Positions 7,269-16,205 of a stretch of 64,000 nt of DNA are shown here, in pieces. Positions within the stretch are counted from its first letter, which is position 1; each line of letters opens with the position of its first letter. This DNA is from a virus (taxonomy: Duplodnaviria; Heunggongvirae; Uroviricota; Caudoviricetes). The stretch lies in IMG/VR virus record IMGVR_UViG_3300032280_000361. One strand, written 5' to 3'. The notes under the pieces are model-generated. The model ran no database searches. It was not told where the DNA came from and saw nothing but the letters and a program-made list of their open reading frames with translations. Made by a program: the position numbers and the translations under genes.

Positions 7269-7823
7269 TTATAATTTGAATGTTGGTAATACTTTATCTT
7301 TGTGTGATACTTTAACATCGATATCTCTTACTCCCCAATCAATCTTAAACGTTGGGTCATTATAAACAATACCACCTTCTGATTCTTTATTATAATAGTT
7401 ATCCACTTTGTAGTTGAATATTGCCTCTTTTGATAAAACTGAAAATCCATGCCCACATCCTTTAGGCACAAATACCATCTTACCATTCTTATCACTTAAA
7501 TCAATGGTGATATGTTTTCCATATGTATCCGAATCATGTCTTAAATCTACAATCACATCTCTAACTAAACCATACGAACATCTTACTAATTTAGATTGTG
7601 CCCATTCTCCTTGCTGAAAATGAATACCTCTAACAACTCCATACTTAGAAAATGATTCGTTATCTTGTAAAAATGTAACGTTATGACCTAATGTAAGCTT
7701 CAATACATCTTCAAACACATCCTTAACATATGGTGTTGAAAAGTATCCCCTTTCATCTTTATAGATTTCAGGCTTTACAATGAAACAATCTTTGATTTTG
7801 GTTTTCTCTAATTTGTATTCCAT
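7269..7823 (-). CDS. rfbC: dTDP-4-dehydrorhamnose 3,5-epimerase
   Basis: DERGYF, QDNESFS..GVVRGIHFQ, QSKLVRC, VPKGCGHGF, YKVDNYY. Confidence 0.95.
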   Translation of the reverse strand: MEYKLEKTKIKDCFIVKPEIYKDERGYFSTPYVKDVFEDVLKLTLGHNVTFLQDNESFSKYGVVRGIHFQQGEWAQSKLVRCSYGLVRDVIVDLRHDSDTYGKHITIDLSDKNGKMVFVPKGCGHGFSVLSKEAIFNYKVDNYYNKESEGGIVYNDPTFKIDWGVRDIDVKVSHKDKVLPTFKL

Positions 7824-7901
7824 AACTTATTTTTAATGATATCAAACCACGCTTATTTTAACGGATGGTGGTTTTGCCGTAAACACATATTCATTTATTT
7901 G

Positions 7902-8049
7902 CTGTAAGAGATGGACTCGAACCACCACGATGCGATTCAGTAAGTAACACTTTGCCGGCCGGCTGGTGGTCTACCCCATATTACTTACCTATTTCGTTCT
8001 CACCACCCCCGAGACAGGAGGGCTTGTCTGCCAATTTCAACACCTTACA
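7902..8049 (-). ncRNA. tRNA-Asp(GTC)-like RNA with ~79-nt extended variable arm
   Basis: Acceptor TGTAAGG/TCTTACA+G73, Leu-type D arm, anticodon arm CCCTC-CTGTCTC-GGGGG, T arm GGTGG-TTCGAGT-CCATC. Confidence 0.7.
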
Positions 8050-8054
8050 ATATG

Positions 8055-8141
8055 CGGAGGAGGTAGGATTCGAACCCACGATACCCTTTCAAGTATGTCT
8101 GATTTCAAGTCAGGTGCCGTCAACCGCTTGGCTACTCCTCC
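8055..8141 (-). tRNA. tRNA-Ser(TGA)
   Basis: Cloverleaf, loop CTTGAAA, long variable arm, TTCGAAT. Confidence 0.92.
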
Positions 8142-8150
8142 GTTATTTTA

Positions 8151-8420
8151 TTAATAGATATGAGTTTCTTCATTTCTGAAATCTCTTGTATCTAATTCAT
8201 ATTTACTTTGTCTTCTTCTAGCTTCTTCAGCTTCTTTGTACCAACGAATCCAAGTTAAGGATACATCGATTGGTGCAAGAACCCACGCCATCATCACTAC
8301 CATAATAGTATCTAATTCAGGTGAACCACCTACAGGAGAATTATCATATCTCTTATTTAGATTACGGAATAGTTGATAGAAACAATAAATAACACAAATT
8401 ACATAATAAGTAATAAACAT
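8151..8420 (-). CDS. Hypothetical membrane protein
   Basis: ORF behind promoter 8441-8472, two hydrophobic stretches. Confidence 0.65.
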   Translation of the reverse strand: MFITYYVICVIYCFYQLFRNLNKRYDNSPVGGSPELDTIMVVMMAWVLAPIDVSLTWIRWYKEAEEARRRQSKYELDTRDFRNEETHIY

Positions 8421-8440
8421 AACTTCTTTTTTAATTTAAG

Positions 8441-8472
8441 TAAAGATACGAAAATTATTTCAAACTTGCAAA
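8441..8472 (-). promoter_or_regulatory. Bacteroidota-type promoter
   Basis: TTTG-N20-TATCTTTA. Confidence 0.7.
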
Positions 8473-8480
8473 TCTTTTTG

Positions 8481-8551
8481 TTATTCGGGCTGGATTCGAA
8501 CCAGAACTAACTGCACCAAAAACAGTTGTGCTACCGTTACACCACCGAACA
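8481..8551 (-). tRNA. tRNA-Gln(TTG)
   Basis: Cloverleaf, loop TTTTGGT, TTCGAAT. Confidence 0.9.
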
Positions 8552-8626
8552 ATACCTCAGGCATTCTACTTCTCGCAACAGAAATTGTATCTTACTTAGC
8601 CCTGCTGTGCGATACGGGTACCTGAT

Positions 8627-8701
8627 TGGAGCAGATGAGAGGAATCGAACCTCCGTCTCCTACTTGGAAGGAAGGAGTAATGGCCATTATACGACATCTG
8701 C
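8627..8701 (-). tRNA. tRNA-Gly(TCC), CCA encoded
   Basis: Cloverleaf, loop CTTCCAA, U73-CCA. Confidence 0.92.
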
Positions 8702-8764
8702 TTAAAAAATGGTGGATAGAAAACATCTATCTTCCTTTCGGCACTCCACCGGATGCCCACTATC

Positions 8765-9271
8765 TTAAATCATACTCTTACTATGTTTTGGGATACGATT
8801 AATCCACATTGCTAATACTTCTCTATTTCCTTCGGTTACCTGTTTAACAGAGTGTTTAGTATTACCATCAAACTCAATCATCTCCCCCAACCCAAATGGT
8901 ATATGTTCTTTTTCTAAATAAAACTCACCACCTTTAAAAGAATCACTAAGTAACATTATATAAGTTCGGATAGATGAAAGAGTATCCGTATGTTCTTTAG
9001 CCTCTTCTCCCACTTTATAATGAATATAATGTATGGATGATAAATATTCAGTATCCTCATTTAATTGAATATACTTCTTTACTATATCAACTAATTCTTT
9101 ATTTCTTAAATCACAAAAGAATGTTTCACTACTAACTAAATCAGTATTATATCCTTTGTTATCCGACCTGAATATAAATGGGTTTTCACTTTCCTTTATC
9201 CCATTCTCTTCTCCATCTCTGTATATTTCTTTTATACGATTAATATCTTCTATTGATATAGTTTGTTTCAT
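8765..9271 (-). CDS. 2OG-Fe(II) oxygenase
   Basis: Y..G....HTD, FKGGEF, HSVKQVTEGNR. Confidence 0.8.
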   Translation of the reverse strand: MKQTISIEDINRIKEIYRDGEENGIKESENPFIFRSDNKGYNTDLVSSETFFCDLRNKELVDIVKKYIQLNEDTEYLSSIHYIHYKVGEEAKEHTDTLSSIRTYIMLLSDSFKGGEFYLEKEHIPFGLGEMIEFDGNTKHSVKQVTEGNREVLAMWINRIPKHSKSMI

Positions 9272-9284
9272 ATCATTTTGTTTG

Positions 9285-9358
9285 TGGACCAGATAGGAAT
9301 CGAACCTATGACCTTCGGCTTATGAGGCCGCCGCTCTAACCGTCTGAGCTACAAGTCC
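9285..9358 (-). tRNA. tRNA(CAT), probably Ile2 (lysidine type)
   Basis: Cloverleaf, loop CTCATAA, body resembles Ile-type tRNAs; Met not excluded. Confidence 0.8.
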
Positions 9359-9414
9359 ATATCGTTTAATTGAACGATAAAATCAAATATCGTTTTTTTC
9401 AACGATAAATAAGG

Positions 9415-9534
9415 TGCCGGAGGAGAGATTGGTTACTCACACGATGTCCACTTAGGATACATCACCTTTCTAGAATTACGGTACGTCTAATAGTTTTTAT
9501 TCGAAACTCAAACTATTCTTTCCGCCACTCCGGC
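9415..9534 (-). ncRNA. Aberrant tRNA-Leu-like RNA with D-loop hairpin insert and degenerate anticodon and T loops
   Basis: Perfect acceptor GCCGGAG/CTCCGGC+A-CC, Leu-like GTGGCGGAA...AGACG, variable arm GATGT/ACATC. Confidence 0.55.
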
Positions 9535-9540
9535 ATATTG

Positions 9541-9614
9541 TGGAGATGATAGGAGTCGAACCTATTACCCTCTGCGTGCAAGGCAGATGCTCTAGCCAAA
9601 TGAGCTACACCCCC
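9541..9614 (-). tRNA. tRNA-Ala(TGC)
   Basis: Cloverleaf, loop CTTGCAC, G3:U70. Confidence 0.93.
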
Positions 9615-9627
9615 ATAAAATTTAACG

Positions 9628-9713
9628 TACCAGAGGTGGGAGTCGAACCCACACGAGCGATTTATGCTCAACAGATTTTAAGTCTGTCATGTCTACCATT
9701 CCATCACTCCGGC
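9628..9713 (-). tRNA. tRNA-Leu(TAA)
   Basis: Cloverleaf, loop CTTAAAA, long variable arm. Confidence 0.93.
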
Positions 9714-9719
9714 ATTTTA

Positions 9720-10136
9720 TTACTTTACAACTGCGTAAAGTTTTGCGTTCTTAAATGATGTTTGTTTATCATCCTCACCAATTAAGATATCAACTCTTTT
9801 TTTATATCTCTTATTCATCACATCTCTTATAGTATAAGTACCACTAAGTTTACCGATGCCTGTAATCCTCACCTTCTTACCAAACTTATACTTCTTTTTC
9901 AAATCTCTACTCACCGCAACTATCCTATGTTTCTTTGGATTAGTAGGATTGATTTCAAACCCACTTGCGGTAATCAATGGAGTACTATCAGTTTGCTCTA
10001 CCGTAGGTGAATAAGTTGTCACCGTAACAATATCAGGCTCAATACCTTTAATCTCCATTTCAATTTCTTTCTCCATCATATTAATTTCCATTGGTAGGAT
10101 AAATAATACAAAAGATAAAATGATGTTTACATGCAT
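9720..10136 (-). CDS. 3D-domain (MltA-like) putative lytic transglycosylase
   Basis: VTTYSP..QTD.TPLITASG, IVAVSRD, D.MN.RY..RVDIL; N-terminal hydrophobic anchor. Confidence 0.8.
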   Translation of the reverse strand: MHVNIILSFVLFILPMEINMMEKEIEMEIKGIEPDIVTVTTYSPTVEQTDSTPLITASGFEINPTNPKKHRIVAVSRDLKKKYKFGKKVRITGIGKLSGTYTIRDVMNKRYKKRVDILIGEDDKQTSFKNAKLYAVVK

Positions 10137-10160
10137 AACATTTTGTTTTAAAGTTTAATG

Positions 10161-10234
<74 letters not shown>

Positions 10235-10239
10235 AAATC

Positions 10240-10404
10240 GTTGTTTCAACTTGCAAGTTTACTCTTAACATCTCTTTCTCTACAACGTCTGAATTTAATC
10301 AACATTTGTAGTCCGAATGTAGCTTTTGGGTAATTACTCCAGTGCTTCTATGTAACTCTATATACCTTGCTTTGTTACTAAGCGTGTTAAGTGTATGAAA
10401 CAAC
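10240..10404 (-). ncRNA. Candidate structured ncRNA (165 nt) between tRNA-Asp and tRNA-Arg
   Basis: Terminal stem GTTGTTTCA/TGAAACAAC continued by CTTAACA/TGTTAAG; internal hairpins. Confidence 0.5.
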
Positions 10405-10407
10405 TTG

Positions 10408-10481
10408 CGGAATGTATGGGACTCGAACCCATGACCTCATCCGTGACAGGGATGCATTCTAACCAACTGAACTAACACTCC
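10408..10481 (-). tRNA. tRNA-Asp(GTC)
   Basis: Cloverleaf, loop CTGTCAC, G73. Confidence 0.93.
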
Positions 10482-10486
10482 AACTG

Positions 10487-10559
10487 AGCCTCCCATCGGA
10501 ATCGAACCAATGACCTACTGATTACAAATCAGTTGCTCTACCTGCTGAGCTAGGGAGGC
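10487..10559 (-). tRNA. tRNA-Thr(TGT)
   Basis: Cloverleaf, loop TTTGTAA. Confidence 0.93.
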
Positions 10560-10564
10560 AATTG

Positions 10565-10636
10565 TACTCAGTACGGGATTCGAACCCGTATTACATCCGT
10601 GAAAGGGATGTGACCTAACCCTTAGTCGAACTGAGC
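10565..10636 (-). tRNA. tRNA-Glu(TTC)
   Basis: Cloverleaf, loop CTTTCAC. Confidence 0.92.
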
Positions 10637-10640
10637 GTTT

Positions 10641-11039
10641 TTAAAAAGGTAAACTGATAGAACTACTATTAAATGCACTTCTATGTTTTAACTTTTGTAT
10701 TTCCGCTATTAATGTCAAATAACTATTAACCATACTATTCTTATGTAACTCTTCACATACTTGTCTAAGAAACTGATTCATATCCCACATATCTTTCCTA
10801 CGAAATATCCTTTTGATATTAGGAGTAATCTGCGTTGGAACTATATAAGCAGTCATCCAAAACTCTGTATCTTTTGCCTGTAATGTTACTTTTAATAATG
10901 TATCTCCGATATTTTCAGAATTATCCATTTCCAATACATAGAAATCATCCTTATCCGTATAAGTAGAGGATATGGATAACCCCGCTCCACTAATGAATAC
11001 ACTCCTATACCTTAACTTATCCCACCCTTTTATTATCAT
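10641..11039 (-). CDS. Hypothetical protein
   Basis: ORF directly behind promoter 11047-11078. Confidence 0.65.
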   Translation of the reverse strand: MIIKGWDKLRYRSVFISGAGLSISSTYTDKDDFYVLEMDNSENIGDTLLKVTLQAKDTEFWMTAYIVPTQITPNIKRIFRRKDMWDMNQFLRQVCEELHKNSMVNSYLTLIAEIQKLKHRSAFNSSSISLPF

Positions 11040-11046
11040 AACTTTA

Positions 11047-11078
11047 CAAAGATACGAAAAAACATTGATATAACCTAA
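11047..11078 (-). promoter_or_regulatory. Bacteroidota-type promoter
   Basis: TTAG-N20-TATCTTTG. Confidence 0.7.
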
Positions 11079-11098
11079 TATTTCTTCATTTATTTCCG

Positions 11099-11184
11099 CA
11101 GAGAGTGAGGGGCTCGAACCCTCGCGGCTTTAACACCCTAACGATTTAGCAAACCGTCCCCTTCACCAACTTGGGTAACTCTCT
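11099..11184 (-). tRNA. tRNA-Ser(GCT)
   Basis: Cloverleaf, loop TTGCTAA, long variable arm, G73. Confidence 0.92.
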
Positions 11185-11188
11185 ATTG

Positions 11189-11262
11189 GGTGTCTAATGA
11201 GGTTCGAACTCATACTATCAGTACCACAAACTGACGTGCTGACCATTAACACTATAAACACC
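11189..11262 (-). tRNA. tRNA-His(GTG)
   Basis: Cloverleaf, loop TTGTGGT, G-1:C73. Confidence 0.92.
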
Positions 11263-11271
11263 ATTTTAATT

Positions 11272-11538
11272 CTATTCTTTAGCCGCTTCAGCCCAATTCT
11301 CATTAACCATTGACCAATAGTTTTTGTTTAAGTAGATAATATCATATCCACTATCGTTTCTATCTATGAAGATAATTCCTTTCTTAACCAATGAACCCAA
11401 AGCCCCTCTGATTGTTTTTGTTGGGATGCCCATTTCTTCACTCAAATCGTTTACATCCACATCTGAATAACCAGGTTCCGCATATAAACAACTAATGAAA
11501 GTACTCAATGTTTTGTCTTCTAACCATGTAATGTTCAT
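11272..11538 (-). CDS. Winged helix-turn-helix protein
   Basis: VNDLSEEMGIPTKTIRGALGSLVKKGII pattern. Confidence 0.75.
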   Translation of the reverse strand: MNITWLEDKTLSTFISCLYAEPGYSDVDVNDLSEEMGIPTKTIRGALGSLVKKGIIFIDRNDSGYDIIYLNKNYWSMVNENWAEAAKE

Positions 11539-11568
11539 AACTTTTATATTTTAAGGTTTATAATTTAA

Positions 11569-11790
11569 TTATCTAACTACTTCACCACGCTCTAACCAGA
11601 ATGAATCATTTCTTCTGGCATTCATCTCCCACTTAGCTCTCTCATACCTCTCATTACTAATCGCACCCATCTCAAAACAATACTCCATATTCAACTCAAA
11701 AGGAGAAACACGCAAATGCATCGCACGAGTTATTAGGAACTCACAATACTCATTAACACTCATCAAATCCAAATTGGGTAAACTATTCAT
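11569..11790 (-). CDS. Hypothetical protein
   Basis: ORF behind promoter 11826-11857. Confidence 0.65.
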   Translation of the reverse strand: MNSLPNLDLMSVNEYCEFLITRAMHLRVSPFELNMEYCFEMGAISNERYERAKWEMNARRNDSFWLERGEVVR

Positions 11791-11825
11791 ATCTTTTATC
11801 TTTATGTTTAACTCTTATTACATAG

Positions 11826-11857
11826 TAAAGGTAATACATTTTGCATTAAAAGTCAAG
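11826..11857 (-). promoter_or_regulatory. Bacteroidota-type promoter (early class)
   Basis: CTTG-N20-TACCTTTA-CTATG. Confidence 0.65.
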
Positions 11858-11877
11858 CTTTATTTCATTTATTTTTG

Positions 11878-11947
11878 TCGCATGTATGAGGTTCGAACTC
11901 ATTTGGTCATCCTTATGAGAGATAACTCTTTTCCACTAAGCCATGCA
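11878..11947 (-). tRNA. Atypical tRNA-Met(CAT) with shortened D arm
   Basis: Loop CTCATAA, T arm ATGAG-TTCGAAC-CTCAT, acceptor TGCATG/CATGCG; only 70 nt. Confidence 0.7.
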
Positions 11948-11952
11948 GTTTG

Positions 11953-12023
11953 AGGTGGATATTGGATTTGAACCAATGTAAATGGTTTTGCAGACCACCT
12001 CCTCACCTCTCGGACAATCCACC
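11953..12023 (-). tRNA. tRNA-Cys(GCA)
   Basis: Cloverleaf, loop CTGCAAA, U73. Confidence 0.92.
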
Positions 12024-12029
12024 CTATTG

Positions 12030-12101
12030 TAGCCCCTAAAGGATTCGAACCCTTACTAAAACATCCGTAGTGTTTCGTGCTATCCGTTACACCAAAGAGC
12101 C
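12030..12101 (-). tRNA. tRNA-Arg(ACG)
   Basis: Cloverleaf, loop CTACGGA. Confidence 0.92.
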
Positions 12102-12107
12102 AAATTG

Positions 12108-12178
12108 CACCCCCTGAAAGATTCGAACTTTCATCTGCGGTTTTGGAGACCGTTATGCTACCATTGCACCAAAGAGAT
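12108..12178 (-). tRNA. tRNA-Trp(CCA)
   Basis: Cloverleaf, loop CTCCAAA, G73. Confidence 0.9.
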
Positions 12179-12183
12179 GTGTG

Positions 12184-12257
12184 TTGGAATAGATGGACTC
12201 GAACCATCGACTTTCACCGTATCAGGATGACACTCTAACCAACTGAGTTATATTCCA
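12184..12257 (-). tRNA. tRNA-Ile(GAT)
   Basis: Cloverleaf, loop CTGATAC. Confidence 0.92.
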
Positions 12258-12263
12258 ATGTTG

Positions 12264-12339
12264 TCGGATAAGCAGGATTCGAACCTGCGTGCTCCACATC
12301 CCAAATGTGGCGAGATAGACCTGACTCCTCTACTATCCG
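12264..12339 (-). tRNA. tRNA-Pro(TGG)
   Basis: Cloverleaf, loop TTTGGGA, C1:G72, A73. Confidence 0.92.
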
Positions 12340-12345
12340 TTATTG

Positions 12346-12419
12346 TGAACCCGAATGGACTCGAACCATTGACTCCCTCATTAAAAGTGAGGTGCTCTAA
12401 CCAACTGAGCTACGAGTTC
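12346..12419 (-). tRNA. tRNA-Lys(TTT)
   Basis: Cloverleaf, loop CTTTTAA. Confidence 0.93.
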
Positions 12420-12425
12420 ATTCTG

Positions 12426-12498
12426 TGGAGAAAGTTGGTTACGCTCCAACTCCTGTGGATTTTCAGTCCACTGCTTCTACTAAGTTAGCTTCTTCTCC
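12426..12498 (-). tRNA. tRNA-Phe(GAA) with non-canonical D and T loops
   Basis: All stems intact, loop CTGAAAA; T loop AGCGTAA, D loop lacks GG. Confidence 0.8.
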
Positions 12499-12505
12499 TA
12501 TTAAG

Positions 12506-12587
12506 TGCCTGCAGATGGACTCGAACCACCGAACTCCGAAGAGAGGAGATTTACAGTCTCCAGCAATTGCCACTATGCGATACAGGC
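12506..12587 (-). tRNA. tRNA-Tyr(GTA)
   Basis: Cloverleaf, loop CTGTAAA, variable arm. Confidence 0.92.
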
Positions 12588-12591
12588 AGTT

Positions 12592-12685
12592 AAAAGATTA
12601 ATAACACATATAGAAGAAATCACATCTTCTCTTCCCCAAAAGAGGAATTAGTTTCATCCACATAGGCGATTTACATTAATCTTTT
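12592..12685 (-). ncRNA. Candidate structured ncRNA (94 nt) between tRNA-Val and tRNA-Tyr
   Basis: 11-bp terminal stem AAAAGATTAAT/ATTAATCTTTT, two internal hairpins. Confidence 0.45.
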
Positions 12686-12686
12686 G

Positions 12687-12760
12687 TAGAAGATATAGGA
12701 TTCGAACCTATGACTCTCGCCATGTAAAGGCGATGCTCTAACCAACTGAGCTAATCTTCT
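12687..12760 (-). tRNA. tRNA-Val(TAC)
   Basis: Cloverleaf, loop TTTACAT. Confidence 0.92.
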
Positions 12761-12765
12761 GTATG

Positions 12766-12847
12766 TGCCCCCTAAGAGACTCGAACTCTTAATCCTTTCG
12801 GTCTTGTGCCTAAAACAAGCGTGTCTACCAAATTCCACCAAAGGGGC
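12766..12847 (-). tRNA. tRNA-Leu(TAG)
   Basis: Cloverleaf, loop TTTAGGC, variable arm CC-GAAA-GG. Confidence 0.9.
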
Positions 12848-12860
12848 AACTTTCCCATAA

Positions 12861-12871
12861 TGTCAAAGAAC
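12861..12871 (-). promoter_or_regulatory. rrn-type boxA antitermination element (similar copies 14231-14240, 14553-14562)
   Basis: GTTCTTTGACA on the transcribed strand. Confidence 0.65.
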
Positions 12872-12880
12872 TTTCTTTTG

Positions 12881-12952
12881 CGTTGGTAATAGGGGTCGAA
12901 CCTATAGCCTATCGGTTAACAGCCGATTGCTCCACCATTGAGCTACACCAAC
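12881..12952 (-). tRNA. tRNA-Asn(GTT)
   Basis: Cloverleaf, loop CTGTTAA, G73. Confidence 0.93.
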
Positions 12953-12960
12953 ATACACTA

Positions 12961-12997
12961 AAACAAAAAAACCCCTAACTTTTTGAGTTAGAGGTTT
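12961..12997 (-). terminator. Intrinsic terminator (attenuator) directly upstream of the 12-tRNA block
   Basis: AAACCTCTAACT-CAAAA-AGTTAGGGGTTT followed by U tract. Confidence 0.8.
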
Positions 12998-13026
12998 CTT
13001 TATATGAATATGAGTATTTGTTCTAC

Positions 13027-13185
13027 TTATCCTACATCTGTATCCTCTAACTTTGTACTAATATAATCCACCTTGCCTAATTCTAGTTGCACCGGATTGC
13101 TTATTGTACTAAACATACGAATCCCGCACCACTCATTTCTCAATGTAGGTTGCGAATTATTTGTATGTAAGTTAAGAGTTTTCAT
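13027..13185 (-). CDS. Putative attenuator leader peptide (52 aa)
   Basis: Manual ORF MKTLNLHTNNSQPTLRNEWCGIRMFSTISNPVQLELGKVDYISTKLEDTDVG; contains AGTTAGAGG complementary to the terminator 5' arm. Confidence 0.65.
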   Translation of the reverse strand: MKTLNLHTNNSQPTLRNEWCGIRMFSTISNPVQLELGKVDYISTKLEDTDVG

Positions 13186-13229
13186 CTTTTGTTAATATAA
13201 GTATCTAATATTTTTGTTTTAAATAAAAA

Positions 13230-13299
13230 AAGTAATTCATCTTCAAAATACGCCACGTCAAGTCATGCTCCGGTTAATATAAGCCTCGATAAATTACTT
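13230..13299 (-). ncRNA. Candidate stem-closed ncRNA (70 nt)
   Basis: Terminal stem AAGTAATTTATC/GATGAATTACTT followed by U run. Confidence 0.35.
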
Positions 13300-13306
13300 C
13301 TCACTG

Positions 13307-13347
13307 CTATCATTATTGGAATCGAACCAACTCTAACCATTATGATA
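13307..13347 (-). ncRNA. Mini-tRNA (acceptor stem plus T arm, no anticodon arm)
   Basis: TATCAT-A-ATGGTTAGA-GTTGG-TTCGATT-CCAAT-A-ATGATA-G-CA. Confidence 0.6.
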
Positions 13348-13357
13348 ATAAAAAAAT

Positions 13358-14218
13358 AAGGATGAGAATACTCCATATTGTGAACCAGCTTTATAAGGGT
13401 TATTAGTTGCCTTAATTTCCACTTCCTTTTGAGAAGTACCAATTCAATGTGGGTAAGTAATGCCTACCAATCATAAAGTTACAAATTACTCTCTTCGTAC
13501 TCATTTTCTTCAAGCCTCGCAGCCTGATTAGTTCTTGCGGAATTAGAAACCTTTCGAAAGAATCACATTTACCTTGAGAGTATTTGTGGCAGGGAACAGC
13601 TCCCTACTATGTACACACCTTTCGTCTGTAACTGGCAAACACTTTTTCTTTATGATTATTAATTTTTGAAGTCAATATCAAAAGTTTTTGGTTTGTAGAT
13701 TTGTTCAAGTAGTGGTTTGCCACCAGCTCCGTTATCTTTTGAACAACAGAATACTAAACTACTCGATGTGATATCCCTATCACCATATTTTGAGTCATCT
13801 TCATTTATAAGTGTTGGTACACTTTATAAAAGGATAGTAACAGCACCATCTGTACACAGTCTTATCTTAATGGGTTTCCCCAATTTGATGTTAAGACCAC
13901 TCTAATATTGAATCACGCAATTATATGAAGGGATTAAGTTCATACTTCTTACATAAATTCTATGAGTTATTCTTATTGGTGTTCCCACCTCAACTGAACA
14001 ATCTACGTTTGCTCAGTCACCTCTACTCCTCTCCTAAAGTGTTACCCTCAGTTACTAAGCAGTTGTGATATCTCACTTGCATACTCGAGCTCACCTCCCT
14101 TACGGGGGAGAAGCCGCAGAATAGTTAACCAACTACTCCACTTTATCCTTCTTTCGAAGTTTATTTAACGACCATATGCGGCCACTCTATTGTGTAACAC
14201 TAAGTTACTATATAGAAA
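13358..14218 (-). ncRNA. Large ornate structured RNA (~860 nt), GOLLD-like
   Basis: No credible ORF, own promoter plus boxA, many GNRA-capped hairpins and AGTA/GAA motifs, inside a phage tRNA cluster; family inferred from size and context. Confidence 0.65.
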
Positions 14219-14256
14219 TTATTTCATTAAATTAAAGAACTTTTCTTTTGTTTTAA

Positions 14257-14288
14257 CAAAGATACGAAAACTTTTTCATATTTCCTAG
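14257..14288 (-). promoter_or_regulatory. Bacteroidota-type promoter for the large ncRNA
   Basis: CTAG-N20-TATCTTTG. Confidence 0.7.
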
Positions 14289-14315
14289 TCTTTTTAAAAC
14301 TTTTTTTTACAAAAA

Positions 14316-14409
14316 GTGAGAGGGGTATCCGGCTTTGTTAACCCCCTTACCATAAGGAAGTGGTCACTCATTCGGTTTTATTAGATGATGGCTTCAACCA
14401 CTCTCTCAT
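14316..14409 (-). ncRNA. Candidate structured ncRNA (94 nt) with own promoter
   Basis: Terminal stem TGAGAG/CTCTCA, hairpins GTGGT/GACCAC and CCTTA-TGG-TAAGG; followed by U run. Confidence 0.5.
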
Positions 14410-14418
14410 TTTGTTCTA

Positions 14419-14450
14419 CAAATATACGAAAAGGTTTTCACATTTCCTAA
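14419..14450 (-). promoter_or_regulatory. Bacteroidota-type promoter
   Basis: TTAG-N20-TATATTTG. Confidence 0.7.
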
Positions 14451-14473
14451 TTTATTTGTAAATATTTTTGTTG

Positions 14474-14545
14474 TTGCGGGAGAAGGATTCGAACCTCCGG
14501 CCTTTAGGTTATGAGCCTAACGAGCTACCACTGCTCTATCCCACG
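14474..14545 (-). tRNA. Initiator tRNA-fMet(CAT)
   Basis: Cloverleaf, C1xA72 mismatch, loop CTCATAA. Confidence 0.9.
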
Positions 14546-14585
14546 ATATAATTTTAAAGAACTTCTGTTAGTATTTATATATATA

Positions 14586-14617
14586 CAAATATACTATAAA
14601 AACATCGAAATTCCAAA
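14586..14617 (-). promoter_or_regulatory. Bacteroidota-type promoter for tRNA-fMet
   Basis: TTTG-N20-TATATTTG. Confidence 0.7.
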
Positions 14618-14633
14618 AATATTTTTATTTTTT

Positions 14634-14888
14634 TTAACTATGGCAATTCATAGCACACATAGATAATAGGAAGATGTTGTTTCTACAATCTGTATCTGCT
14701 CTACTCATTGCTAGGTATAAGTTATTAGCAACTACTGCCTCTACAAATCCACCACCTGCATAAGAACTCTTATCTCTGGTACACATAATTGATACCATAA
14801 TATCTATGATGTGGTTACTTACATTTTCATAACCCCACTCTTTAGCGAATTGAATAGCTCGCTCTCTATTTTGCTCTCTGATATCCAT
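14634..14888 (-). CDS. Hypothetical protein
   Basis: GGGFVEAVVANNL..A.SRAD motif; packed operon. Confidence 0.7.
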   Translation of the reverse strand: MDIREQNRERAIQFAKEWGYENVSNHIIDIMVSIMCTRDKSSYAGGGFVEAVVANNLYLAMSRADTDCRNNIFLLSMCAMNCHS

Positions 14889-14898
14889 AGTTTATATT

Positions 14899-15084
14899 TT
14901 ATTTTTTAATAATCAATTCCAAATTGTTGTCATCGAATCGTAGTCCAACAACTTCTCCACCATCACCATTAGTATTAGATTCAACTAACTCCATAAACTT
15001 TTTAAGGTCTACTGCTCTTACGAAGATACCACCCTGGCATTCTCCTTCAAATCCATCTTTCCAAAATACTTGTTCGTTAAACAT
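14899..15084 (-). CDS. Hypothetical protein
   Basis: Packed co-directional ORF. Confidence 0.65.
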   Translation of the reverse strand: MFNEQVFWKDGFEGECQGGIFVRAVDLKKFMELVESNTNGDGGEVVGLRFDDNNLELIIKK

Positions 15085-15088
15085 AATA

Positions 15089-15436
15089 TTATATTTTATT
15101 TTTTATCTGATTTATATGCTTACAACCATTACCTCTACTAAATCCATATGCTGGACAGGAACAACTCCATTTACCACTATCATTGATAACTTCATAAATC
15201 TTACCTTTACTTCCTTCAGCGGAAAAGGTTTGTTTTTTAACAGATTTTGGTAGTTTTACTACTGATATTGTCTCTTTTTTAAACTCTGGCTTTAACCACA
15301 TTTCCTTTAACTCTTTCCAACCATATTGTCTATCTACTTCAACCCAACCTAATTTAGGGTCAGTTGTTACGATATACCATTGACCGGAAATAACCGATTG
15401 AAATGAAGTTGGTGGCAAAACTGAGGTTATTATCAT
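15089..15436 (-). CDS. SWIM zinc finger protein
   Basis: GSKGKIYEV...WSCSCPAY......CKHI. Confidence 0.8.
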   Translation of the reverse strand: MIITSVLPPTSFQSVISGQWYIVTTDPKLGWVEVDRQYGWKELKEMWLKPEFKKETISVVKLPKSVKKQTFSAEGSKGKIYEVINDSGKWSCSCPAYGFSRGNGCKHINQIKNKI

Positions 15437-15437
15437 A

Positions 15438-15653
15438 TTATCTATATAAGGTTACGAAATGCCCAAAGTGGTTATCAAACACATTTACTGCGTTTTCATA
15501 ATCACCGCTCATCATTTCTTTTCTAATTGATGCACCATCTAATCCCAATTGTTTGGCTAGATTACCTGCAGTTCCAATTAAGAAAAATACATTACCTTGT
15601 GGACCTGTTAGGTCAATTTCAATTCCTGATTTTTTAATTTTACTTTTTATCAT
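15438..15653 (-). CDS. Hypothetical phage protein
   Basis: IDLTGPQGNVF...MMSGDYE pattern; packed ORF. Confidence 0.7.
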   Translation of the reverse strand: MIKSKIKKSGIEIDLTGPQGNVFFLIGTAGNLAKQLGLDGASIRKEMMSGDYENAVNVFDNHFGHFVTLYR

Positions 15654-15671
15654 TGTTTTATATTTTAAGGT

Positions 15672-15914
15672 TTACCAACACATCATATTACCTGCATCAT
15701 CCCATTGCTTACTACTACTAGCAGTTGCTTTGTGTAAAGTAGTGTAGTCCACTTTCAAGTTCGAATTACCAAACTGGCGTTTTACCTCAGCCATAAACTC
15801 TATAATGTTCTTAGCCCAAATATCATTGAACCCACCACCTATCCAATTGAATAAGTAACGATATTGCCCTTTTGAATTCTTTAATAAAGGTTCTCTTTTA
15901 ATAGATGCTCTCAT
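15672..15914 (-). CDS. Hypothetical protein
   Basis: Co-directional ORF. Confidence 0.65.
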   Translation of the reverse strand: MRASIKREPLLKNSKGQYRYLFNWIGGGFNDIWAKNIIEFMAEVKRQFGNSNLKVDYTTLHKATASSSKQWDDAGNMMCW

Positions 15915-15941
15915 AATTTTATATTTTATATTTTATGTTTA

Positions 15942-16205
15942 TTACTTAATACCTTTTTCGATAAACTGAATTGTGGTTTGGATTCGGTCCGTAATGTGGA
16001 TAGGTAATCCCAATTGTTTAGCGGATTCCAACATCTCTGTGTAAAGGTAACCATCCCATACTCCACATAACATATTGTAAACTTCATTGAACCAAGATTC
16101 GTTTTTATCTAAGTAGAAGTTCTCTACCTCTCTGAGGGTAGCAGAGTGGAATTTCATCCATTCTCCGTTGAATAATTCGTGTCGGTTAAATCTTACAATG
16201 TTCAT
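15942..16205 (-). CDS. Hypothetical protein
   Basis: First ORF after promoter 16229-16260. Confidence 0.65.
   Translation of the reverse strand: MNIVRFNRHELFNGEWMKFHSATLREVENFYLDKNESWFNEVYNMLCGVWDGYLYTEMLESAKQLGLPIHITDRIQTTIQFIEKGIK

Follow-up and report, generated by a model that had tools for sequence, protein, structure and literature searches.

A 64,000-nucleotide (nt) stretch of DNA from an uncultured aquatic phage (IMG/VR record IMGVR_UViG_3300032280_000361, Caudoviricetes), here called the window, carries between a GOLLD RNA and an array of phage tRNA genes a short module of ~230 nt, which is probably a ribosome-mediated (leader-peptide) attenuator governing whether the GOLLD/leader transcript continues into the tRNA array. 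The analysis was carried out wholly in silico. The module comprises a mini-open reading frame (ORF), four segments (A to D) capable of alternative pairings, and an intrinsic terminator just ahead of tRNA-Asn; the leader, segments B and C, the terminator, and tRNA-Asn all lie on the minus strand, as do all genes of the window, whose GC content is ~32%. A first-pass annotation, made from the letters alone, had described a 52-codon ORF, a 9-nt complementarity, and a strong terminator ahead of tRNA-Asn, all of which are confirmed from the minus-strand sequence; it had overlooked the GOLLD RNA directly upstream, the first pairing region (the anti-antiterminator), and the fact that the module belongs to a conserved family. 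The features on which the argument turns are these:

13027-13185, minus strand: leader ORF of 52 codons plus TAA (ATG at 13185-13183, TAA at 13029-13027); the peptide starts MKTLNLHT.
13182-13169, minus strand: segment A (region 1), AAAACTCTTAACTT, in codons 2-6, complementary to B.
13052-13044, minus strand: segment B (region 2), AGTTAGAGG, putative antiterminator 5' strand, exact complement of C.
12994-12986, minus strand: segment C (region 3), CCTCTAACT, terminator 5' arm and putative antiterminator 3' strand.
12960-12980, minus strand: segment D (region 4), AGTTAGGGG (12980-12972) followed by T7-G-T4 (12971-12960), terminator 3' arm and U-tract.
11952-12952, minus strand: putatively regulated tRNA block Asn, Leu(tag), Val, Tyr, Phe, Lys, Pro, Ile, Trp, Arg(acg), Cys, called by ARAGORN and Rfam.

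Three alternative helices would decide the outcome: A with B would form an anti-antiterminator, B with C an antiterminator, and C with D plus the U-tract the terminator. Segment B lies within codons 45-48 of the ORF, its end 14 nt ahead of the stop codon, and C begins 49 nt 3' of B; segment A resembles C and in the window is also complementary to D plus the U-tract. The terminator has a GC-rich stem of 9 bp closed by the loop CAAAA, and a consensus scan of 7500-16000 ranks the site at 12994-12960 as by far the strongest terminator-like site. The tRNA-Asn gene starts at 12952, 7 nt past the T-run and 19 nt past the stem, so that no promoter fits between the terminator and the first tRNA, as had been argued in the first-pass annotation. 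The same annotation counted 12 tRNAs in the block; 11 are called by ARAGORN and Rfam, and the twelfth, a "Met" candidate at 11878-11950 (minus strand, anticodon CAT), is called neither by ARAGORN nor by Rfam (E ≤ 1). In relatives a tRNA-Met(cat) is called at the corresponding position, following Cys, so the candidate in the window may be an atypical or degenerate copy. The block belongs to a 24-tRNA region (8054-14545) in which all 20 amino acids are covered (ARAGORN).

Compensating changes in a family of leaders

To collect related modules we used proteins encoded by neighboring genes as anchors, which yielded 44 related viral contigs (L001-L044). Only L011 carries the tRNA/GOLLD island, and most of the others are without any tRNAs or GOLLD; near-identical neighbor proteins (up to 97% identity, for an 88-residue protein encoded at 11272-11538) occur on contigs that lack both, indicating that the island (8054-14545) is variable cargo among close relatives, possibly mobile. 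The ORF of L011 has 30 codons, reflecting a 66-nt in-frame deletion that leaves the start and the last seven codons unchanged. Because L011 alone shares the island, flanking-gene anchors were useless for this purpose, and we used a DNA anchor instead, GAGCATGACTTG N2-3 TGGCGTATTTTGAA, the invariant motif of a structured element upstream of the leader. This anchor retrieved 32 viral and 98 metagenome loci; the combined set holds 132 modules, among which 78 leaders are distinct. Neither GenBank phages nor 185,579 isolate genomes contain the motif, and the GenBank phage collection holds no homologue of the leader or of the upstream element.

The terminator is present in all 78 distinct leaders, as verified sequence by sequence (the C:D pair count on the alignment described below is uninformative, one class having been shifted by one column by MAFFT). 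A tRNA array stands behind every leader with enough downstream sequence, the first tRNA being Asn (55 leaders), Tyr (7), Gly (6), Ile (5), or Val (1), and in nearly every such leader this first tRNA begins 11-20 nt past the terminator. In five leaders (L056, L057, L098, L124, and L150) the first tRNA (Asn, anticodon region CTGTTAAT) has an odd T-arm, GGGATATCGTAATTCTC; ARAGORN misses it in the last four, where the first called tRNA lies 93-184 nt past the terminator.

The helix of B with C shows both conservation and covariation. A 6-10-nt complement of the leader's own terminator 5' arm was found in 78 of 78 distinct leaders, with a mean complementarity score of 10.2 vs. 6.1 for shuffles (median p 0.005), and for the window alone none of 200 shuffles of the upstream sequence pairs as well with the terminator arm. 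On alignment A2, a MAFFT alignment of the B-to-D region, 93.1% of cells in the B:C helix are paired, compared with 32-58% for slid-partner controls; five of the nine pairs have changes on both sides, 31 cells are compensatory, and the covariation score of 0.193 (vs. 0.109 in shuffles) was reached by 0 of 500 shuffles. The B/C pair is AGTTAGAGG/CCTCTAACT in the window, GTCAGGGT/ACCCTGAC in L067, GAGTTAGGG/CCCTAACTT in L140, and AAGTTAGGGT/ACCCTGACTT in L091. In L068 it is AGTTAAGGG/CCCTTAACT, and the compensating change there converts the peptide end from LEDTDVG to LRDINKG. In the examples compared, namely the window, L067, and the class with 22-codon ORFs, C is matched perfectly by B even at the position where its pairing with D is G.U, which favors RNA pairing over a repeated DNA motif.

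The position of B relative to the ORF also bears on the level at which it is selected. Three registers were observed: a stop codon 22 (or 19) nt after the B anchor, a TAG inside B that itself serves as the stop codon (five leaders), and a TAA just 5' of B. The last is found in the 22-codon class, in which B begins right after the stop, outside the ORF (stop 3-4 nt before B). In every member the stop codon coincides with B or lies no more than 22 nt away, and a ribosome would halt before reaching C or D. The retention of B in three registers suggests that B is selected as RNA and that the stop codon tracks B; the peptide change in L068, the TAG inside B, and the placement of B after the stop likewise point to selection on RNA. 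Complementarity of A to B is weaker than that of B to C (median p 0.04 vs. shuffles, over distinct A/B pairs), and its variants covary, TTGAC occurring with GTCAG and, in L070, CTTGAAT with ATTCAGG; A:B was assessed without a formal column count, the TTAAC motif standing at differing offsets among subclasses.

One alternative is a plain constitutive (leaky) terminator that ends the GOLLD unit, with tRNAs made by basal read-through and with complementarities that have no regulatory role. It would leave unexplained the three-way covariation of A, B, and C across 78 leaders, the conserved ORF, and the stem and T-run that already precede the leader. GOLLD does lie directly upstream, one natural variant (L086) has the terminator only, and the terminator is the most stable local hairpin at equilibrium; weighing these observations together, we consider a plain terminator very improbable.

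The leader reading frame

We examined the ORF across the family for signs of translation. Of the 129 modules not cut by a contig end, 128 have an open frame of 22-53 codons that starts with ATG, L086 being the exception, and the ATG is invariant across the leader family. In the class with the stop after B, the ATG-to-B distances of 65, 68, 74, 92, 95, 98, 104, 107, 131, and 134 nt are all 2 mod 3. The ratio of nonsynonymous to synonymous change (pN/pS) is 0.52 (56 minimum-spanning-tree edges), and the codon-position entropies of 0.80/0.99/0.81 indicate about equal variability, with no third-position excess and with the second position the most variable. The C-terminal two thirds of the peptide are dispensable, as the ORF ranges from 52 codons down to 22. 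The absence of a third-position excess is as expected of a regulatory ORF rather than of a folded protein, and, taken together, these sequence patterns are those of an ORF that must be read, under mild constraint on its content.

Near-invariance is confined to four residues: Met1, His (CAT), Thr (ACA or ACG), and Trp. At the nucleotide level, ACATAC (His-Thr, 13167-13162 in the window) and TGG (13131-13129) are invariant in 60 aligned leaders; among the 72 distinct ORFs tabulated, the His codon is CAT and never CAC. Two further family members are without the HT pair, L085 (QT) and L114 (HI). No pairing partner for ACATAC or TGG is common to all family members. These invariant His-Thr and Trp codons may act as sensors, belong to a nascent-peptide motif, or mediate an RNA contact. 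Two more specific candidates were rejected: a TnaC-like arrest peptide, since the leaders conserve neither the Trp-to-Asp spacing nor the C-terminal residues, and a universal pause hairpin between the invariant CATAC and GTATG, since GTATG is missing from about half of the leaders.

The conserved N-terminal core, with its nearly invariant His, Thr, and Trp, a pN/pS below 1, and the constant adjacency of the peptide to GOLLD would also suit an ordinary small-protein gene with its own terminator. The peptide of 22-53 residues (conserved HT, W.G) would then be functional, for example by binding GOLLD or ribosomes, and B:C would stabilize or process the mRNA 3' end. However, a working protein would be expected to show a lower pN/pS than 0.52, variation peaks at the second codon position, and the peptide tolerates loss of its C-terminal two thirds; the leader peptide matches no Pfam or PHROG family, and where pairing and peptide are in conflict the pairing wins (E to R in L068). 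A small-protein gene would also leave the complementarity of B to the terminator arm and the promoter-less tRNA array unexplained, and we judge it unlikely, at roughly one chance in ten.

A translation-independent RNA switch is slightly more credible, although we regard it too as unlikely. In such a switch the choice among A:B, B:C, and C:D would fall to GOLLD, a protein, a small RNA, or an uncharged tRNA (in the manner of a T-box), with the ORF incidental or kept for some other reason. The pairings do covary as RNA, B lies outside the ORF in the 22-codon class, the leader ATG has no Shine-Dalgarno sequence ahead of it, third codon positions are not the most variable, and the module is always linked to GOLLD and, in relatives, to a transfer-messenger RNA (tmRNA) gene. 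Against this stand the invariant ATG, a frame kept over ten lengths, the pN/pS of 0.52, and a stop codon placed at or within 22 nt of B such that no ribosome would run into C or D. In an Rfam scan of 7500-15500 at E ≤ 1, the T-box covariance model has no match, and apart from a sub-threshold hit to Thr_leader (RF00506; 24 bits vs. a gathering threshold of 55, E = 0.43), which covers the terminator only, no other Rfam family supports such a switch.

Folding, proposed mechanism, and what the leader may sense

To characterize the competing structures we folded the leaders with and without a ribosome. The helix energies in the window are -8.2 (A:B), -13.6 (B:C), -10.0 (C:D; -19.7 with the A/U extension), and -16.3 kcal/mol (A:D), which we take to be of the same order as those of the Escherichia coli trp leader. 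The ribosome-free full-length minimum free energy (MFE) structure combines A:B with C:D in 72 of 78 leaders. When the ribosomal A-site is placed at codons 2-10, B:C appears in 100%, 100%, and 91% of the folds of nascent RNA ending at C (classes I, II, and III, respectively); with the A-site at the last four positions, the corresponding values are 0%, 0%, and 23%. In ribosome-masked folding of the window leader, a ribosome stalled at codons 2-41 leaves B accessible, and one standing anywhere between about codon 43 and the stop blocks it. The attenuator interpretation of the first-pass annotation is thus supported, and each computational check that it proposed matched the prediction: folding confirms mutually exclusive hairpins, relatives keep the position and frame of the ORF despite large indels, and the antiterminator changes in step with the terminator arm even as the peptide diverges.

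We propose that, if no ribosome loads on the leader, C would pair with D and transcription would stop 7 nt before tRNA-Asn. A ribosome that quickly reaches the stop codon would occlude B, again leaving C to pair with D and stopping transcription before tRNA-Asn. If instead a ribosome is delayed early in the ORF, A would be masked and B would be free when C emerges; B:C would form before D is made, no terminator could fold, and RNA polymerase, whether of host or phage, would read into the tRNA genes. The tRNAs would probably be made only when ribosomes read slowly, and the phage would in this way raise its own tRNA supply when decoding is slow.

Several observations weigh against this proposal. 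It assumes that transcription and translation are coupled and that the polymerase obeys the terminator. The ribosome-free MFE structure of the window and of four other leaders is the read-through form (in the window, B:C plus A:D at -61.5 vs. -56.9 kcal/mol, the former being the ribosome-free global optimum), and in 50 of 59 class I leaders nascent RNA reaching as far as C already adopts B:C without any ribosome; termination without translation would therefore depend on kinetics. In class I, a ribosome halted at the stop codon would shield no more than the final 3-4 nt (3' end) of B; no Shine-Dalgarno sequence precedes the leader ATG; and the tandem regulatory codons by which classical attenuators are recognized are missing from the leader. 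The natural variant L086 (~250-400) keeps the terminator without the leader ORF, A, and B. Relatives are not independent, and the shuffle-based p-values given above overstate significance. Finally, the leader transcript could start either by GOLLD read-through past the stem and T-run that precede the leader or at a weak promoter match at the ATG:

13194-13223, minus strand: sigma-70-like promoter match TTTAAA-18-TATATT (consensus scan), ending 8 nt before the ATG.

In the same scan promoter-consensus matches are no commoner than in shuffles, which makes this match weak evidence of a promoter; TATATT or TATATA a few bases ahead of the ATG recurs among relatives. If the match is used, the leader mRNA may be leaderless or nearly so. 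As to the structure of L086 itself, its upstream element runs straight into the terminator (CCTCTA..TAGGGG plus T7), and a tRNA follows.

We then considered which codons an attenuator of this kind might sense. Leader peptides use 14-20 amino-acid types, and the rare residues His, Cys, and Trp occur in nearly all of them. The first-pass count for the window peptide, 19 of 20 amino acids (no Ala) and 34 different codons, holds on recount; the former is unremarkable (P = 0.17) and the latter unusual (P = 0.014), and the enrichment in G/C-ending codons that it also claimed is not significant (G+C at third codon positions 0.286 vs. 0.207 in window genes, P = 0.13). Across the family, leader peptides exceed segments of the same length from this phage's proteins in residue diversity (median P 0.034; P < 0.05 in 54% of leaders), and two of them, L063 and L158 (39 and 42 residues), contain all 20 amino acids (P about 0.01). 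Leader residues agree weakly with the tRNAs of the block behind them (0.608 vs. 0.564 with permuted leaders, relatedness being ignored), Tyr giving the clearest association (22/3/4/23), with several exceptions.

Residue diversity is thus a family trait, and the idea of a sensor of all amino acids is only suggestive. A general sensor of decoding speed is no more than plausible, and a sensor centered on the invariant His, Thr, and Trp codons, which sit where a stalled ribosome would cover A, is equally possible. In its broadest form, the proposal would be a general decoding-capacity sensor, in which the mini-ORF is selected to sample almost the full set of amino acids, rare His, Cys, and Trp among them, and in which shortage or cleavage of any tRNA (by starvation, host codon mismatch, or anticodon-nuclease defense) would stall the ribosome and induce the complete phage tRNA set; together with GOLLD and the tmRNA of relatives, this would amount to a self-regulating "translation rescue island." We put this broader scheme, with its link to anticodon-nuclease defense, forward tentatively, as appreciably less probable than attenuation as such.

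Known attenuators and the GOLLD surroundings

Leader-peptide attenuators are known from enterobacteria (trpL, hisL, leuL, thrL, pheL, and ilvL). These share with the phage module a short ORF followed by an intrinsic terminator, alternative 1:2, 2:3, and 3:4 pairings, a region 1 inside the ORF, a stop placed so that a terminating ribosome occludes region 2, similar helix energies, and regulated genes that follow without a promoter. The phage module differs in being phage-borne and in targeting tRNAs rather than biosynthetic enzymes; its leader has 14-20 amino acids in place of a tandem run of one codon, its region 1 stands at codons 2-6, right after the start, its mRNA may be leaderless, and it is physically linked to GOLLD RNA. 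T-box riboswitches are tRNA-sensing antitermination elements ahead of aminoacyl-tRNA synthetase and amino-acid genes, and they resemble the module in that a choice between terminator and antiterminator reports the charging or supply state of tRNA. Unlike them, the phage module has no specifier loop or T-box motif, would sense through the translating ribosome, and has tRNA genes as its output.

Our full-text literature search returned no report of leader-peptide attenuation of tRNA genes, nor of such an element beside GOLLD. In a cryo-electron microscopy paper on GOLLD (bioRxiv 10.1101/2024.12.08.627333), GOLLD in phages is described as "often near tRNA islands," and the env-38 GOLLD lies downstream of tRNA-Met; the loci described there resemble the window in having GOLLD downstream of tRNA-Met, beside a tRNA array, in aquatic phage DNA. 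Its passages on tRNA, phage, and terminator describe neither a leader ORF nor an attenuator in the interval from GOLLD to the tRNA array. The class of mechanism proposed here is known, and what is new is the target (tRNA genes), the carrier (a phage), the nonrepetitive leader, and the linkage to GOLLD.

The usual view of phage tRNA genes is that of cargo that is co-transcribed constitutively. If the attenuator proposal is correct, some aquatic phages would feed translation speed back onto their own tRNA supply, using the attenuator logic of amino-acid operons with a leader that samples many codons instead of one, and tRNA genes would form a new class of attenuation target; the module would also offer a direct handle on how phages respond to tRNA-depleting defenses and codon mismatch. 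To our knowledge GOLLD RNA has been without a known function since 2009, and the module would be the first functional neighbor tied to it.

Upstream of the leader, the following features were identified:

14473-14545, minus strand: tRNA-Met, upstream of GOLLD.
13359-13766, minus strand: conserved 3' domain of GOLLD RNA (Rfam RF02032, 293 bits vs. a gathering score of 150, model positions 1-416).
~13304-13348, minus strand: tRNA-like T-arm/acceptor minihelix, directly after GOLLD.
13221-13298, minus strand: conserved structured element, ~68 nt plus a T-run, with an 11-bp closing stem AGTAATTTATC (13298-13288)/GATGAATTACT (13241-13231).

A blastn alignment to the GOLLD of LR745206/LR756502, uncultured phage genomes of ~640 kb, covers 14183-13354, and the whole GOLLD RNA probably spans about this interval. 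The GOLLD locus of LR745206 (a 635-kb phage) has tRNA-like genes and a terminator and is without the leader module. In the related loci tested, GOLLD lies upstream of the module in 11 of 11, and a tmRNA gene lies upstream of GOLLD in the same number; none was found in the window.

The structured element, which is separated from the leader ORF by an AT-rich spacer, has the invariant interior GAGCATGACTTG..TGGCGTATTTTGAA that served as our anchor and is followed by a T-run at 13230-13221. RNAalifold on 38 relatives finds six pairs with compensatory changes, and no Rfam family matches the element at 13221-13298. The element probably marks where the GOLLD unit ends at its 3' side or acts as a partial terminator; a separate motif is another possibility. 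The minihelix that precedes it combines a T-arm (GTTGG-TTCGATT-CCAAT) with an acceptor-like stem (TATCAT/ATGATA) and ends in GCA; it is exact in some relatives and replaced by unrelated sequence at that place in others, and it might serve as a processing handle for RNase P or RNase Z.

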